Shown piece after piece: positions 41,437 to 62,738 of a stretch of DNA of 64,000 bases. The stretch is taken from the NCBI GenBank assembly GCA_963844965.1, contig CAWJQC010000004.1, positions 41,609 through 105,608 on the forward strand, read 5' to 3'. Made by a program: the position numbers and the translations under genes. Below the pieces are notes generated by a model, which saw only the letters and a program-made list of their open reading frames with translations, was not told where the DNA came from and did not search any database. Position 1 is the first letter of the stretch; the number at the start of each line of letters is the position of its first letter. The stretch is from an uncultured bacterium (lineage in GTDB: Bacteria > Patescibacteriota > Minisyncoccia > UBA6257 > 2-01-FULL-56-20).

Positions 41437-43541
41437 TTACCGTTTTTTGCCTTCGATAATCAACTGCGCAATGTTCTGCGGCACTGGCTCATAATGGTCA
41501 AATTCCATCGTGAACGCTCCCCTGCCTTGCGTCATGGAACGCAACTCGGTCGCGTAGCCGAACATTTCCGCGAGCGGAACTTTGGCGTCAATCACTTTCA
41601 CGTTGGGCCGGTCGGAAATTTCCTCAATCCTGCCGCGCTTGGAGTTCAAGTTGCCGCTCACCTCGCCCAAAAATTCTATCGGGATGATAACCTGAAGCTT
41701 CATTATCGGCTCCAATATGACCGGCTTCGCGCGCTTCGCCGCTTCCTGCAGGGCGATGGAGCCAGCAATTTTGAAAGCCGCCTCCGACGAGTCAACTTCA
41801 TGGAAAGAGCCGTCATAGAGCGAAACTTCAAGGTCGGTCATCGGGTAGTGGGCAACGACCCCCTTACTCAATGCTTCCACCACACCTTTTTCCACCGCCG
41901 GGATGAATTCGTTCGGAATGATCCCTCCCTGATATCGTCTATGAAAACAAATCCCTTGCCGCGCTCCAAGGACTTCACGCGCAGCCAGACATGTCCGTAT
42001 TGTCCGCGGCCGCCGGATTGCCTGATATATTTGCCTTCCGCCTCCGCTTCGCCCATAATCGTTTCTTTATAGGCAACCTGCGGCCGCCCCACCGAACCCT
42101 CAACACCGAACTCCCGCTTCATCCTGTCAACAATAATTTCCAGGTGCAACTCGCCCATGCCAGAAATAATCGTCTCGCCAGTTTCCAGGTCGCCCGCCAC
42201 GCGGAAAGTCGGGTCTTCTTCCGCCAAGCGGTGCAGGGCAATGCTCATTTTTTCCTGGTCGGCTTTCGTCTTCGGCTCAATGCGAATGCCGATCACCGGC
42301 TCGGGGAATATGATCTTCTCAAGCACTATCGGCGCGTCGGGACTGCAAAGCGTGTCGCCGGTCGTCGTATTCTTCAAACCGACGATCGCCGCGATATCTC
42401 CGGCATGCACTTCCTCCATTTCTTCGCGGTGGTTGGCGTGCATCCGCACCACGCGGCCGACACGTTCCTGCTGGTCCTTCTTGGAATTCAAAACGTACGT
42501 GCCGCGCTTCAAAACGCCGGAATAATTCCGGAAATAGGTTAAAGTGCCGACGTACGGGTCTGTCGCAACCTTGAAAGCCAGCGCCGAGAACGGCTCTTCG
42601 TCCTTGGGGTGCCGCACGATATCGGCGCCGCTCTTCGGGTCAATGCCCTTAACCGGAGGAAGGTCCGTCGGCGCGGGCAAATATTCCACAACCGAGTCAA
42701 GCATAAATTGCACGCCTTTGTTTTTCAGGGCCGAACCGCAAAGCACCGGCACAATTTTGTTGGCAATAACGGCTTTGCGCAAAACGCGGCGCAAATCTTC
42801 AATGTCAAGCTCAGTACCATCCAAATACTTGGTCATCAAGGCATCGTCATTGTCCACAATGCGTTCCACAAGTTCATGCCGCGCCTTCTTCACGTGCACT
42901 TTCATATTTTCCGGCATCGGAATTTCTGTAATCTTTTCGCCATGTTCACCCTCCGAGCCGTACGCCTTTTCGGTTAAGAGGTCTATCATTCCCACGAATT
43001 CACCCTCAAGGCCGATGTTCAACTGCAAAGGCAGTGCGTTCGGCGTGAGCCGTTCTTTGATTGACTGCAAACTTTTTTCAAAGCTCGCACCCAAGCGGTC
43101 AAGTTTGTTAATAAAGCAAATCCGCGGCACGTGGTACTCATCGGCATAGCGCCAGTTCGTTTCCGACTGCGGCTCAACACCTGCGACGCCATCAAAGACG
43201 ACAACCGCGCCGTCCAAAACGCGGAGCGAACGCTTCACCTCCACCGTAAAGTCAATGTGCCCCGGCGTGTCAATCAAATTTATCATATGCTCAAATTTTT
43301 TGTCGCCCTTGCGGTAAGTCGGAATCCAGAACGCCGTCGTTGCGGCGGAAGTAATCGTAATTCCCCTCTCACGTTCCTGCTCCATCCAATCCATCACCGT
43401 GTCGCCCGTGTGCACCTCGCCGATTTTGTGACTGACGCCCGTATAAAAAAGCACCCGTTCGCTCACGGTGGTTTTGCCGGCATCTATATGGGCGATGATG
43501 CCGATGTTACGGACCTTCTCGACAGGATACATTCTAGGCAT
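41437..43541 (-). CDS. fusA: elongation factor G, split by one frameshift near 41920-41933
   Basis: [35 protein letters not shown]. At ..FIDDIR the frame slips; adding one G in atcaGGGaGGGatc restores [30 protein letters not shown], which joins the two track ORFs. Confidence 0.9.
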
Positions 43542-43695
43542 TGAATTTGAATAAACTTATTTTAATTCTCGCGCATATTGATGCGGGAAAGGGGTCGGGA
43601 AAACGGGAGTTTTCCCGTATAGGAAAAAGGCCGGAGGCCGAGTTAAAAACCGAGAGGTTTTTAAGGAGCGGGTTGCTGTATAGCGACTCGCGACC

Positions 43696-43755
43696 GTCTA
43701 TATGCGCGATTATTCCTATATTTCTTACTTTTTCTACTGGATATTGTCGCGGCAT
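43696..43755 (-). pseudogene. orphan copy of the first 20 codons of fusA
   Basis: [20 protein letters not shown] versus the resident [20 protein letters not shown]. The amino acids are nearly identical but almost every third codon position differs. It lies 8 nt after the stop of the inserted ORF and ~155 nt upstream of the real fusA start. Confidence 0.7.
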
Positions 43756-43763
43756 AAAATAAA

Positions 43764-44150
43764 TTATTTATCTTCTTCAACTTCCGGCAAACCTGTTCCG
43801 CCTCTCACCCCTTGGCCGCCGCTCTCCACGTAAGACATGGTGACATCGAATGCGTTCCGGAGATAAGGAATTTTGGCGGGACTGCTGTTGCCTTCCTCTA
43901 TCTCCGACCAGCTAATTTTGCCTTTTTCCAAAAGAGCGCTCAGAACTTCTATTTTTGATTTGGTGCCGAAATCCAAAACCGTTTCCGGTGGTGCATAAGC
44001 GATGTTTTTACCCTGCCGAAGCGCTTCCAATTCGTGGCGTTTCGCTCGTTCCTTATATTCTTCCAATTTTAATCGCAATTGCTTTACGCGCCGTCCGTCA
44101 GTAGGCAAAACTATCTCTAAACCACTTTTTTCGGCTTCCGGACCTTTCAT
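43764..44150 (-). CDS. hypothetical protein inserted between rpsG and fusA
   Basis: 128 aa and charged (LRLKLEEYKERAKRHELEALRQGK...). It is flanked tightly by the rpsG-3' and fusA-5' remnants. Confidence 0.5.
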   Translation of the reverse strand: MKGPEAEKSGLEIVLPTDGRRVKQLRLKLEEYKERAKRHELEALRQGKNIAYAPPETVLDFGTKSKIEVLSALLEKGKISWSEIEEGNSSPAKIPYLRNAFDVTMSYVESGGQGVRGGTGLPEVEEDK

Positions 44151-44162
44151 CGTGGCAAATAA

Positions 44163-44201
44163 TTACCGGGCGAAGTGCGCGAATGCCCTGTTCGCTTCCG
44201 C
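44163..44201 (-). pseudogene. orphan copy of the last 12 codons plus stop of rpsG
   Basis: gcg gaa gcg aac agg gca ttc gcg cac ttc gcc cgg taa encodes [12 protein letters not shown], identical in protein to the end of the resident rpsG but different at most third positions. It lies 12 nt upstream of the inserted ORF start. Confidence 0.7.
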
Positions 44202-44278
44202 CCCCGCACCAAAGCTACGCTTGGTACGGGACTCCGCCTCTTCTAAATATCTTAAATTAAGGTGGCTACGCATTCTGT

Positions 44279-44746
44279 TTATCTGGCAAAGTGTGCAAAG
44301 GCACGATTAGCCTCAGCCATCCGGTGCATATCTAACTTCTTTTTGATTGCCGCGCCTTCATTCTTGGAAGCGGCAATGATTTCTTCCGCCAATTTGTCGG
44401 CCATGGGCTTGCCTTTGCGGCTGCGCGCAGTGCCGATTATCCAGCGGATTGCCAAAATAAACCTGCGTTCGGGGCGCACTTCAATCGGCACTTGATAGTT
44501 CGCGCCGCCGACCCGCCGCGATTTCACCTCCAATAAAGGCGAGGCGTTTTCAACGGCTTTCTCAAAAACCTTCAGGGAATCTTCTTTCGTGATTTCTTTC
44601 ACTTTATCAAACGCGTCATAGACAATTTTTTCGGCAATTGATTTCTTGCCGTCGCGCATCACGTAATTAATAAAACGCTCCACGTCTATGCGCTCATGCT
44701 TTATGTCCGGCTTGTGATATTTTTTGTAAACTCGTTTTTTGCGCAT
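44279..44746 (-). CDS. rpsG: 30S ribosomal protein S7
   Basis: [22 protein letters not shown]...[23 protein letters not shown]...[13 protein letters not shown]. Confidence 0.95.
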
Positions 44747-44760
44747 TGTTACATATGGTT

Positions 44761-44817
44761 GTCATTCCGAGCTTTGCGAGGAATCTCATGAGATCCTTCA
44801 CTTCGCTCAGGATGATG
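44761..44817. repeat. palindromic GTCATTCCGAGC...GCTCAGGATGA element (REP/MITE-like) between rpsL and rpsG
   Basis: GTCATTCCGAGCtttGCGAGGAATCTCATGAGATCCTTCacTTCGCTCAGGATGAT is an imperfect hairpin. A related half-copy (GATTCTTCGCATGGCTCAGAATGAC) occurs at ~21995..22020. Confidence 0.55.
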
Positions 44818-44829
44818 CTCTGCGGAGCG

Positions 44830-45240
44830 TCATTTCGGCCGCTTTACACCGTATTTACTGCGCTGCTGTTTCCTGTTATCCACTCCGGTCGTGTCCAAAA
44901 TTCCGCGGATAACGTGGTAGCGCACGCCCGGCAAGTCCTTCACGCGGCCGCCGCGCACGAGAACGATGGAGTGCTCCTGCAGGGTGTGGCCTTCGCCGGG
45001 AATATAAGCCGTGATTTCCATGCCGTTCGTGAGACGGACGCGCGCGACTTTGCGCAGAGCCGAGTTCGGTTTCTTCGGCGTTGTCGTGAAAACCTTGAGG
45101 CAAACGCCGCGCTTGAACGGTGAGCCGGAATCCACCGGCCGATTCTTCAGCGTGTTGAAATAATAAGACAGCGCCGGCGCCTTGGTCTTTGCTTTAAGCG
45201 GCTTCCTTCCTTTTTTAATTAGTTGACGGATTGTCGGCAT
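44830..45240 (-). CDS. rpsL: 30S ribosomal protein S12
   Basis: [12 protein letters not shown]...[22 protein letters not shown]...[15 protein letters not shown]. Confidence 0.95.
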
Positions 45241-46221: not shown

Positions 46222-46294
46222 GTCCCTGTAGCTCAACGGATAGAGCGTGTGGCTTCGAACCACAAGGTTGCAGGTTCAAATCCTGCCAGGGACG
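46222..46294 (+). tRNA. tRNA-Arg (anticodon TCG)
   Basis: GTCCCTGTAGCTCAACGGATAGAGCGTGTGGCTTCGAACCACAAGGTTGCAGGTTCAAATCCTGCCAGGGACG, with loop CTTCGAA. It is bracketed by the perfect inverted repeat CCCTCCCACCTTTG / CAAAGGTGGGAGGG. Confidence 0.9.
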
Positions 46295-46321
46295 CAAAGG
46301 TGGGAGGGTGAAGATATCATA

Positions 46322-46367
46322 TGTGGCTTCGAACCACAGGTTCCAGGTTCGAGTCCTGGCGAGGGCA
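46322..46367 (+). pseudogene. 3' fragment of a different tRNA-Arg(TCG) (anticodon arm to acceptor 3' strand)
   Basis: TGTGGCTTCGAACCACA is identical to the anticodon arm of the neighbouring gene. It is followed by a different T-arm (CCAGGTTCGAGTCCTGG) and acceptor strand (CGAGGGC). There is no 5' acceptor or D-arm. Confidence 0.7.
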
Positions 46368-52648: not shown

Positions 52649-52880
52649 AAGCCACCTCCTTTTCCAGATTCAACCAACTGCTTCCACTCTACCAAAAAGC
52701 GGGAAAAAATCCAGAACCTGTCCAAGTCGTTGCGGAAAGACGTTTTTGGATATAAAATAATAAAACCGGCCGCGAAGCCCGACATAATCAGCGCCATTCG
52801 GCTTAATAAAAATCCGCCCATAGCTCCCACCTTCGCCGAGGCTTCGGCGGGCAAGCAACTGGCCCCGCACCAAAATTTAT

Positions 52881-52953
52881 CCGCGCGTAGCTCAACTGGC
52901 AGAGCAGCTCCCTCTTAAGGAGACGGTTGCAGGTTCGACTCCTGCCGCGCGGA
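52881..52953 (+). tRNA. tRNA-Lys (anticodon CTT)
   Basis: CCGCGCGTAGCTCAACTGGCAGAGCAGCTCCCTCTTAAGGAGACGGTTGCAGGTTCGACTCCTGCCGCGCGGA, with loop CTCTTAA. It is bracketed by the inverted repeat CCCGCACCAAAATTTAT / ATAAATTTGGTGCGGG. Confidence 0.88.
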
Positions 52954-53132
52954 CTGGAAAAATTAAGGATAAATTTGGTGCGGGTTAGACGCCGCAGCTC
53001 TCCTCTTACAACCGCGTAGCGAGGCGAGGATAAAAATCGCCAATTTTTATTTTCGCCGAGCGAGCGGGTGGCGAAACAGGTTTTCGCAGGAAAAGGTTCC
53101 AGGTTCAAGTCCCTGCTTGCCAGCAGGCAGGC

Positions 53133-59959: not shown

Positions 59960-60178
59960 AACGACCTCCTCAAAAAGATTTAATTTAATTGCGCAAAGCA
60001 ATTTGGCTACTCCCAAGAATAACCAAATCGCTTTGCGCAAGCAATATATTCATTTTTCAAGATACTTGCCTATCTATGCTAATTATAGCACAAATAAACA
60101 ACCTGTCAACCCCCACCTTTTTCCGAAAAGGTGGGGGTCAAGTGGCCGCGGCGGCTGACCCGCTGAAGCGACGATACC

Positions 60179-60438
60179 CTACAACTCATAAATCTCATCT
60201 CGCTTGCCTATTTTGAGTATATAAATTGCGCCATTTCTAACGTCAAATACCAACCTATAATCGCCCACGCGAAATCTGAACTCCCCGCCGCGGTTGTCAG
60301 CCAAACGCTTGGCAAACCTCAACGGATTATCCTCTGACGCATAAATGCGCATCTTCTTTGCTTTGCGATGCGCACTTGAACTTCTCTCGGCAGGGATTCC
60401 AACTGCTTAGCCGCCCGCTTGGCATAGAAAATCTTCGT
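60179..60438 (-). pseudogene. decayed copy of the RelE/ParE toxin gene
   Basis: About 97% identical by eye to 62204..62458, but the start ATG is mutated to ACG (cgt at 60436-60438) and a 5-nt insertion (ctttgctttgcg versus cttcgcg) shifts the frame. Confidence 0.7.
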
Positions 60439-60614
60439 TACAATCCCAACTTCTTAAACAGCTTATCCTGCGATATAGTTTTTTTTGCCTTGATTTCTTT
60501 TCTCGCTTCGCGGACATCCAAAATATGCGCGAGGTAGCCAAGCAGGGCGCCGAAGCGAGCATCCGTTTTCCTCAAACGCTCGTATTCTTGTTTTGGTATA
60601 GTAACCGTGGTCAT
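60438..60614 (-). CDS. antitoxin (copy 1) of the RelE/ParE pair, intact
   Basis: MTTVTIPKQEYERLRKTDARFGALLGYLAHILDVREARKEIKAKKTISQDKLFKKLGL, identical in protein to copy 2. Confidence 0.6.
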   Translation of the reverse strand: MTTVTIPKQEYERLRKTDARFGALLGYLAHILDVREARKEIKAKKTISQDKLFKKLGL

Positions 60615-60737
60615 ATAAGTGCATTATAGTAAACCGGCGGCGGATATCAACCCCCACACCAAACGAGGACTTTCCGGGTCCCGCGCCGAAGGCGCATGTC
60701 CTCGTTAGGATTCTCGATAGGAATTGCCGGTGCGACA

Positions 60738-61916: not shown

Positions 61917-62203
61917 ACATTTAAGATAATCCCAAAGCATGTAGCTGTCAACTCCTCTCAACTCCCGAGAAAACCCAGATGGCGAGCTTCTCCCTGCCTC
62001 GATAGGGTAGAAAAACAACTCAAACAGCCCAACGAAATTCGTTGGGCTGGATTTTTTTAACCAATGGCGTCACCCGCCGTTGAATTCCTTAATATCTTTT
62101 GGCGAACACCGTTTAAACTACCTGTCAACCCCCACCTTTTTTCCGAAAAGGCGGGGGTCAAGCGGCCGCGGCGGCTGACCCGCTGAGCTGAAGCGACGAT
62201 ACC

Positions 62204-62458
62204 CTACAACTCATAAATCTCATCTCGCTTGCCTATTTTGAGTATATAAATTGCGCCATTTCTAACGTCAAATACCAACCTATAATCGCCCACGCGAAAT
62301 CTGAACTCCCCGCCGCGGTTATCAGCCAAACGCTTGGCAAACCTCAACGGATTATCCTCTGACGCATAAAAGCGCATCTTCTTCGCGATGCGCATTTGAA
62401 CTTCTCTCGGCAGGGATTCCAACCGCTTAGCCGCCCGCTTGGCATAGAAAATCTTCAT
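62204..62458 (-). CDS. RelE/ParE-family toxin (intact copy)
   Basis: 84 aa; ...GGEFRFRVGDYRLVFDVRNGAIYILKIGKRDEIYEL is the typical RelE/ParE C-terminal pattern. Its ATG overlaps the antitoxin stop (TAATG). Confidence 0.75.
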   Translation of the reverse strand: MKIFYAKRAAKRLESLPREVQMRIAKKMRFYASEDNPLRFAKRLADNRGGEFRFRVGDYRLVFDVRNGAIYILKIGKRDEIYEL

Positions 62459-62634
62459 TACAATCCCAACTTCTTAAACAGCTTATCCTGCGATATAGTT
62501 TTTTTTGCCTTGATTTCTTTTCTCGCTTCGCGGACATCCAAAATATGCGCGAGGTAGCCAAGCAGGGCGCCGAAGCGAGCATCCGTTTTCCTCAAACGCT
62601 CGTATTCTTGTTTTGGTATAGTAACCGTGGTCAT
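62458..62634 (-). CDS. antitoxin (copy 2) of the RelE/ParE pair
   Basis: 58 aa, the same sequence as copy 1, translationally coupled to the toxin. Confidence 0.6.
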   Translation of the reverse strand: MTTVTIPKQEYERLRKTDARFGALLGYLAHILDVREARKEIKAKKTISQDKLFKKLGL

Positions 62635-62678
62635 ATTAAGTGCATTATAGCAAACCGGCGGCGGATGTCAACCCCCAC

Positions 62679-62738
62679 ACCAAACGAGGACGCGCGCCTT
62701 CGGCGCAGGACCCGGAAAGTCCTCGTTTGGTGTGGGGG
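62679..62738. repeat. 20-bp perfect-stem hairpin (CCCCCACACCAAACGAGGAC ... GTCCTCGTTTGGTGTGGGGG)
   Basis: A perfect inverted repeat around a 28-nt loop. The loop is present in the opposite orientation in the copy-1 region (60671-60697). Confidence 0.8.

Follow-up and report, generated by a model that had tools for sequence, protein, structure and literature searches.

Diverged remnants of rpsG and fusA around a small gene in a bacterial str operon: probable capture of a fragment from a related lineage

How does an accessory gene get into an operon that is highly conserved? Few known gene arrangements are as conserved as the operons for ribosomal proteins and translation factors, and the entry of a gene into one of them without breakage is rarely visible. 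The locus described here bears on this question. It lies in a stretch of 64,000 nt (hereafter the window) of contig CAWJQC010000004.1 (assembly GCA_963844965.1, contig positions 41,609 to 105,608), whose str operon belongs to a bacterium of the Candidate Phyla Radiation (CPR), more precisely of a Liptonbacteria-like clade. Between rpsG and fusA, the genes of ribosomal protein S7 and of elongation factor G (EF-G), there is an open reading frame (ORF) of 128 codons, ORF128, and it is flanked by a second end of rpsG and a second beginning of fusA, both diverged from the resident genes. We favor the explanation, with a probability of roughly 0.6, that in this genome's lineage the rpsG-fusA gap took up, by non-homologous joining at both ends, a 506-bp DNA fragment of a Liptonbacteria-like lineage that is related but diverged. 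Such a piece would consist of the last 12 codons of the donor rpsG, the gene native to the donor's slot (ORF128) and the first 20 codons of the donor fusA. In a variant of this explanation, the insertion would have occurred in a close relative, and the region would later have been inherited or imported from there. If this is the case, the preserved donor stubs let a single locus show where the acquired DNA begins and ends, how it was joined and that the cargo lay in the same slot of the donor.

Along the minus strand, on which all features of the locus are encoded, the operon runs rpsL, rpsG, the insert region, fusA, a TPR-like gene and tuf. Resident rpsG (44279..44746) is intact and codes for a 155-aa S7 protein that matches Pfam Ribosomal_S7 over its full length (2e-61). 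A 77-nt spacer (44202..44278) leads from its stop codon to the left junction. The left end of the insert is the remnant rpsG' (44163..44201), comprising the last 12 codons and the stop of a diverged rpsG. After a gap of 12 nt comes the cargo, ORF128 (43764..44150), and after another gap of 8 nt the remnant fusA' (43696..43755), which holds codons 1-20 of a diverged fusA, forms the right end of the insert and breaks off immediately ahead of the AGKT P-loop codons. A second spacer of 154 nt (43542..43695) separates fusA' from the start of resident fusA (41437..43541), which is full length except for a 1-nt deletion near 41929, with the Pfam domains of EF-G lying over two ORFs. The distance from the rpsG stop to the fusA start amounts to 737 nt. 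When recomputed from the sequence, the strings, coordinates and spacings that a preliminary description had given for rpsG', the ORF and fusA' all proved correct. The same arrangement is found in an independent assembly: Logan contig L001, from run ERR10755942, is 100% identical to window positions 43589-44941 and covers the end of rpsL, resident rpsG, both remnants, ORF128 and 107 nt of the 154-nt spacer, that is, three of the four joins.

The two remnants encode nearly the same residues as the resident genes with largely different codons. rpsG' agrees with the resident gene in 12 of 12 residues and the stop, 27 of 39 nt and 3 of 13 third codon positions, and fusA' in 19 of 20 residues, 42 of 60 nt and 6 of 20 third positions. 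For the remnants combined, 30 of 99 nt differ, while 31 of 32 residues and the common stop codon agree; out of 25 differing codons, 24 are synonymous. We compared these figures with a neutral simulation in which 30 random substitutions were put on the resident segments (200,000 runs). The simulated sequences had on average 18.7 amino acid changes and at least 11, and not one of the 200,000 runs had one change or fewer. With a single change observed against a simulated minimum of 11, the remnant and resident copies diverged under purifying selection, as parts of working genes in separate lineages, and not by decay following a duplication. The preliminary description was therefore right that the remnants are not recent duplicates of the resident copies. 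Its wording that they differ at nearly every third codon position is a slight overstatement, since 24 of 33 third positions differ. As to their source, rpsG' is identical at 35 of 39 nt to the rpsG end of the ORF-bearing locus L088 (hand count) and at 33 of 39 to that of L091, and fusA' is closest to the fusA of the genome labeled N below (50 of 60 nt, compared with 49 of 60 for L085, L090 and L092), but at 39 and 60 nt the remnants are too short and too saturated to be placed reliably by similarity.

ORF128 itself has no match among Pfam, PHROG, NCBIfam or PADLOC families, and a word-indexed search of 5.8 billion proteins returned 2 relatives. A full profile search with HMMER produced 275 cluster representatives of its family, mostly 105-135 aa in length. 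The proteins (~105-135 aa) are characterized by the pattern LP.D...KL.EY..R ... KI.VL..LL..G ... VI..Y..tGG...GGTGLP. ORF128, with its conserved C-terminal GGTGLPEVE tail, has every invariant column of a 22-member family alignment. The ratio of nonsynonymous to synonymous substitution rates (dN/dS) against the closest relative is 0.135, and we therefore regard ORF128 as a real gene under constraint. Whether the ORF is conserved had been left as a point to check; judging from the 275 representatives and this ratio, it is. The family is uncharacterized and helical. No recombinase domain and no nuclease family was detected in ORF128, and its helical model had no match to a nuclease-like fold. Compared with its neighbors the family evolves faster: between other lineages its members are 44-50% identical in amino acid sequence, as against 75-80% for rpsG. 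No relative of ORF128 was found in the species-representative genomes. Other forms of the family are a double copy in tandem (P0009, 350 aa) and fusions in which the N-terminal region is longer (proteins P0009, P0014, P0027 and P0028).

Closer members of the family occupy the very place in which ORF128 is found. A tight rpsG-ORF-fusA arrangement, free of remnants, is present in L002/L004, L085/L086, L087 and L088, in agreement with the earlier suggestion that the ORF sits natively between rpsG and fusA in a diverged genome. L002 and L004 are loci of one genome, which we label N and in which the locus lies on a 412-kb contig. The tight native slot is not universal: in L089, a more distant but still close member of the family, the ORF lies outside the str operon. 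Its neighbors there, assigned by eye from their translations, appear to be the gene of a membrane protein of unassigned family and a tRNA-dihydrouridine synthase-like gene. This small-protein family, newly defined here, conserved and physically linked to rpsG and fusA, might be a candidate for a role in translation.

The alignment of N with the window extends over 506 nt without a single gap. It spans positions 43697-44202 (L002), one base off the interval of the preliminary description at either end. The 12-nt spacer before ORF128 and the TAATTTATTTTATGCCGCGACAATATCC junction after it are common to the window and N, and the 8-nt spacer together with the start region of fusA' is identical in the two. 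On this alignment, the insert is collinear with the native rpsG-ORF-fusA layout.

If the cassette came from elsewhere, its history might differ from that of the surrounding genes. The closest EF-G relatives are L090 (90% aa identity), L091 (89%), L092 (86%) and N (86%). Identities to L090 and N, in this order, are 93% and 83% for tuf, 42% and 27% for the gene downstream of fusA, 90-96% and 86-88% for fusA, 90% and 88% for rpsG, and 68% and 66% for the M50 protease. For rpsL (S12; 44830..45240), the str operon gene upstream of rpsG, both are 93%. In other words, L090 is nearest for each backbone gene compared, with the exception of the tie in rpsL. Since L090 is nearest for rpsG and fusA just as it is for the rest of the backbone, the resident genes appear to belong to the backbone and to have its history. 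In both L090 and L091, the slot is without ORF128.

The cassette shows a different relationship to N. At conserved residues, ORF128 uses the same codon as N in 69 of 100 cases (0.69), compared with 619 of 1240 (0.50) for the pooled backbone (Fisher p = 0.00025); the fraction is 0.57-0.61 in the codon-biased rpsL, rpsG and tuf and 0.36-0.40 in the weakly expressed M50 and downstream genes. The synonymous divergence (dS) between the window and N is 0.83 for ORF128, 1.39 for rpsG and 2.87 for fusA. The short spacers of the cassette are identical to those of N at 18 of 20 positions, whereas the rpsL-rpsG spacer is essentially unalignable with N. These values suggest that ORF128 is linked to N more recently than the backbone is. 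Codon agreement, dS and spacer identity, taken together with the usually fast evolution of this ORF, therefore argue that, with respect to the genomes in which it is found, the cassette has moved horizontally. Codon composition and the GC content of third codon positions (GC3) fail as markers of foreign origin because the window and N are too alike in these respects.

By what type of joining might the fragment have entered? Homology to N starts and stops abruptly at 44202 and 43697. At the left join at most GG is common with donor-type sequence, and at the right join a G, so that microhomology amounts to 1-2 nt. In the 77-nt spacer there is a 10-bp hairpin (~44203-44230) whose 3' foot directly abuts the left join. 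The insert has no bounding inverted repeats, no target-site duplication and no recombinase or nuclease gene.

Three kinds of known elements were considered and rejected. A transposon, insertion sequence or miniature inverted-repeat transposable element would not agree with the lack of terminal inverted repeats and of a target-site duplication, nor with spacers that are unrepeated in the window. For a site-specific integrative element there is neither an identical attachment-site (att) core, no stretch longer than 8 nt being identical in a remnant and the corresponding resident gene, nor an integrase gene. A free-standing homing endonuclease cassette of the LAGLIDADG, GIY-YIG, HNH or PD-(D/E)XK type was discarded as well, the cargo being without a match to a nuclease family or fold.

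The preliminary description had suggested homology-facilitated illegitimate recombination (HFIR). As HFIR in natural transformation is described in PMC3240628, one of its ends is homologous. A foreign fragment of a diverged relative near homologous genes, with at least one join almost devoid of homology, is what the locus has in common with HFIR, and an illegitimate end at a microhomology of 1-2 nt is indeed present. A homologous crossover at the other end, with replacement of the resident allele, is not seen: the two joins are both illegitimate, both resident genes are complete and untouched, and two remnants have been kept. HFIR would replace one resident flank and leave one remnant only, and for this reason a double illegitimate insertion, in which both joins have little homology and the inserted DNA is from another genome, seems to fit better than classical HFIR. 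In short, the foreign diverged fragment and the illegitimate join of the earlier proposal stand, but strict HFIR does not. A crossover might lie hidden in fusA beside codon 20.

Related to this is the short-patch form of double illegitimate recombination (SPDIR), in which, according to bioRxiv 10.1101/2023.11.22.568220, ectopic single strands pair at sites of microhomology and become incorporated in the course of replication. Double illegitimate recombination and SPDIR resemble the present case in having a foreign segment, two joins with 1-2 nt of microhomology and neither repeats nor a recombinase; the hairpin at one join of the window can be listed on the same side. Unlike SPDIR patches, which are very short, the insert comprises 506 bp in an orthologous slot, and it is a natural footprint as opposed to a laboratory event. 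In Acinetobacter baylyi, Hülter and Wackernagel (2008) reportedly observed double-illegitimate integrations of greater length. Another comparison is offered by integrative islands which restore the end of the gene they target, those at tRNA or tmRNA gene 3' ends for example. They too have a duplicated or displaced gene end beside an intact copy at the edge of acquired DNA; in contrast to them, the insert has no identical att core and no integrase, and synonymous differences are spread over the whole of its duplicated gene ends. The mechanism, illegitimate recombination between diverged genomes, is of an already known kind, for which the locus might provide a natural example from organisms that cannot be cultured.

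A tentative scheme of the events can be outlined. The fragment might have entered, for example, by uptake of a short fragment or by template switching while a break in the slot was being repaired. Because it landed in the orthologous slot, it is tempting to speculate that it was guided there by pairing of the diverged rpsG and fusA flanks. With resident rpsG and fusA intact, the operon would still work, and the donor gene ends would be left behind as inert in-register remnants. Normally, recombination between remnant and resident copies would be expected to tidy such structures into the tight native layout. In the window the structure may have persisted since its repeats lack the length and the similarity (70% identity) needed to recombine.

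Several observations do not sit well with the capture of a foreign fragment. First, 17 of codons 1-20 of resident fusA (43482-43541) differ from L090, as compared with 6 of 20 for codons 21-40, and at the third positions of codons 1-20 the remnant matches L090 in 11 of 20 cases and the resident copy in 4 of 20. This hints that on this side the incoming sequence could be the resident 5' end of fusA rather than the remnant; the third-position test for resident fusA (p = 0.002) is softened by codons 1-20 being fast-evolving in all genome pairs. Second, nothing in the short slots of close relatives (38 nt in L091) corresponds to the 77-nt and 154-nt spacers, and a presumed pre-insertion spacer of 231 nt needs explaining. 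Third, the remnants share fewer codons with N (13 of 30) than ORF128 does (69 of 100), so the history of the fragment with respect to N is not uniform; because of this difference, ORF128 would also have moved relative to its flanks, either in N or in the donor. Finally, no genome of the exact lineage with an empty site was found, the exact rpsG product of the window being present only on L001 and the source contig, and the last 48 nt before the start of resident fusA are covered by the window's own assembly alone. On balance, the proposal of the preliminary description that an rpsG'-ORF-fusA' fragment was captured from a diverged genome is supported by the divergence of the remnants, the native synteny and the discordant history of the ORF, although the direction on the fusA side is not fully settled.

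Could the direction have been the reverse? In that case, ORF128 would be native and the remnants would be the former ends of the genome's own genes; DNA of a relative lacking the ORF would have overwritten the end of rpsG and the start of fusA through two HFIR events anchored in the gene bodies, bringing along the 77 nt downstream of rpsG and the 154 nt upstream of fusA. We consider this unlikely, yet it is the alternative that survives best. It would account for a resident fusA that is foreign with respect to L090 in codons 1-20 and L090-like in codons 21-40, a switch that coincides with the boundary of the remnant, for the resemblance of fusA' to the 5' ends of L090, L092 and N, and for spacers without counterparts, as expected if they had come with the incoming DNA. 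More distant relatives hold the ORF in the same slot, so it could be ancestral. On the other hand, two separate events bracketing one gene are required, and ORF128 is more N-like than every backbone gene, the weakly expressed ones included, which would be unexpected under vertical descent. The end of resident rpsG has distinctive GCT GAG codons in common with L090 and looks native; the 5' end of resident fusA has a GC3 typical of this genome, and that of the remnant is not. The anomaly of codons 1-20 is in turn weakened by their generally fast evolution. Moreover, such a structure may persist only where divergence keeps the repeats from recombining, and what is seen would be biased accordingly.

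A broader question is whether the rpsG-fusA gap is a preferred site for such changes. In L091 the slot is empty, with 38 nt (2276-2313), in L092 it holds an unrelated 172-aa ORF of no known family (2437-2955), and in N the native gene of the ORF128 family. L090 carries there a gene of the PDDEXK_3 family (PF13366; 2540-3000), and so does L009, a Jorgensenbacteria genome (1402-1856), the two proteins being 71% identical. The PDDEXK_3 elements of L090 and L009 have the same ~35-nt terminal inverted repeats, GCTACGAAATACGAAAT...TACGAATATACGAAA, and span the region from the rpsG stop to the fusA start. In a Kerfeldbacteria genome (L040, 3466-4781) the slot contains 1.3 kb with two ORFs. The PDDEXK_3 unit thus looks like a slot-specific mobile element. 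It fills the slot in two CPR lineages distant from each other, with the same terminal inverted repeats in both, so the rpsG-fusA position is the target of at least one mobile element. Judged by the loci compared, the slot is a hot spot for insertions, with at least four different states in the clade. The insert of the window resembles the PDDEXK_3 element in its slot and its single small cargo gene; the latter differs in having ~35-nt terminal inverted repeats and a gene of a nuclease superfamily and no gene-end remnants, whereas the insert lacks both the repeats and the nuclease. It might be speculated that the nuclease-family cargo supplies breaks that make the slot recombinogenic.

Structures analogous to that of the window were found in other populations. 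In L003, after a divergent ORF (48% aa identity), there come a fusA' remnant of 32 codons, a spacer of 86 nt and a complete fusA, the similarity of its spacer to that of the window being at most marginal (p ~0.04). P0273, known as a predicted protein only, is 62 aa long and present on three European Nucleotide Archive (ENA) contigs; it consists of a fusA' start, HLR and then a spacer-like peptide, 34 of 40 residues of which are identical to the translated 154-nt spacer of the window, with the junction at the same position. Among 80 species-representative genomes, no duplicated remnants were found. Recurrence in other populations and the use of the slot by a nuclease-family element bearing terminal inverted repeats add to what is a clear footprint.

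These observations invite a more far-reaching, if doubtful, idea. The rpsG-fusA gap of Liptonbacteria-like CPR bacteria might be a dedicated landing pad for small cargo genes that are exchanged between lineages in two steps, namely, a break-triggered, homeology-guided capture together with donor stubs and a subsequent trimming of the stubs by recombination. The window, L003 and P0273 would then represent frozen intermediates, and the PDDEXK_3 element may supply the breaks. If this were true, there would be a general route for accessory genes into essential operons, ending in a seamless operon insertion.

Somewhat less probable still is that the ORF128 cassette and the end-pieces of rpsG and fusA form a recurrently mobile unit, in which the gene ends serve as homology arms or capture is triggered by breaks made by slot-targeting elements such as PDDEXK_3. 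The fusA' remnants in three populations are in line with such a unit, the one in L003 breaking off at another point (32 codons) and adjoining a spacer that is essentially unrelated. So are the movement of the ORF relative to its flanks and the nuclease-family element with terminal inverted repeats that is found in the very same slot of two distant lineages. However, features of a nuclease or recombinase are absent from ORF128, remnants are missing around most of the family members that occupy the slot, none of the 80 species-representative genomes has duplicated ones, and the window and P0273 may descend from a single ancestral event.

The preliminary description had also raised the alternative of a chimeric assembly of two co-occurring related populations. 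The source is, after all, a metagenome-assembled contig, and L001 ends 48 nt short of resident fusA. Nevertheless, the results do not support this alternative and we consider it highly improbable. L001 reproduces three of the four joins exactly, resident rpsG included, and the joins share only 1-2 nt, leaving no sequence of k-mer length that might mislead an assembler. Both outer flanks are from the same L090-like backbone. The same fusA'-spacer junction is encoded by P0273 from other contigs, and the remnant of L003 is analogous. Least tenable is a tandem duplication of the gene ends in place, with subsequent decay: both fusA copies of the window have Val7 where close relatives have Ile7, but the randomized third positions and the almost exclusively synonymous codon changes, at a level matched by none of the neutral simulations, leave virtually no room for it.

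We also looked at the sequence on either side of the insert, which under the capture of a foreign fragment would be the former contents of the slot. Neither spacer is repeated elsewhere in the window and neither matches any fetched locus, except for 36 nt in L004 and the same-sequence copy in L001. These 36 nt form a hairpin element in the 154-nt spacer (43584-43619), with an 8-bp stem GGGAAAAC/GTTTTCCC, and are 35/36 identical to L004:191-226 of N, far above the identity of genes (75-83%). The copy in N is non-coding and lies between a degenerate duplicate of a tRNA-Lys 3' end and the real tRNA-Lys. Rfam had no match for the slot or for N's copy of the element, and a scan of the coding strand of the slot for promoters and terminators gave nothing convincing. 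The window's tRNA-Lys(ctt) (52881-52954) is flanked by an inverted repeat, CCCGCACCAAATTTATCC / GGATAAATTTTGGTGCGGGG (region 52863-52980), and the hairpin of the 77-nt spacer ends in the same 12-mer, TTTGGTGCGGGG, as this repeat, which may be due to chance.

Two predicted ORFs bridge the spacers. A 36-aa ORF (44163..44273) starts 5 nt past the rpsG stop and ends at the stop codon of rpsG', and a 73-aa ORF (43534..43755) starts at the ATG of fusA' and has a stop that overlaps the start of resident fusA, ATGCCTAG. Such an arrangement arises in 0.6% of shuffles, in a test that was chosen after seeing the data. The bridging ORFs may relay translational coupling through the insert. P0273 is the counterpart of the 73-aa ORF but ends earlier.

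Other features of the window are of less consequence for the insert. In the spacer between rpsL and rpsG there is an imperfect 28-nt palindrome at 44762-44815. The deletion in resident fusA near 41929 consists of one G absent from a G-run, ATCAGGGAGGG compared with ATCAGGGGCGG in L090. It splits EF-G into ORFs of 557 and 152 aa, and the source record contains the truncated product P0153. Most probably this is a homopolymer error of sequencing or assembly, but a real pseudogene or a programmed frameshift could be involved. Beside tRNA-Arg (46222-46295), a weak partial tRNA match (46307-46359; 30 bits, model positions 9-63) may represent a truncated tRNA duplicate. Finally, the window contains a direct duplication of ~600 nt (60107-60709 and 62127-62730), the copies of which lie 2 kb apart, have 92-94% protein identity and include an ORF that, by eye from its translation, resembles a RelE/ParE-type toxin.

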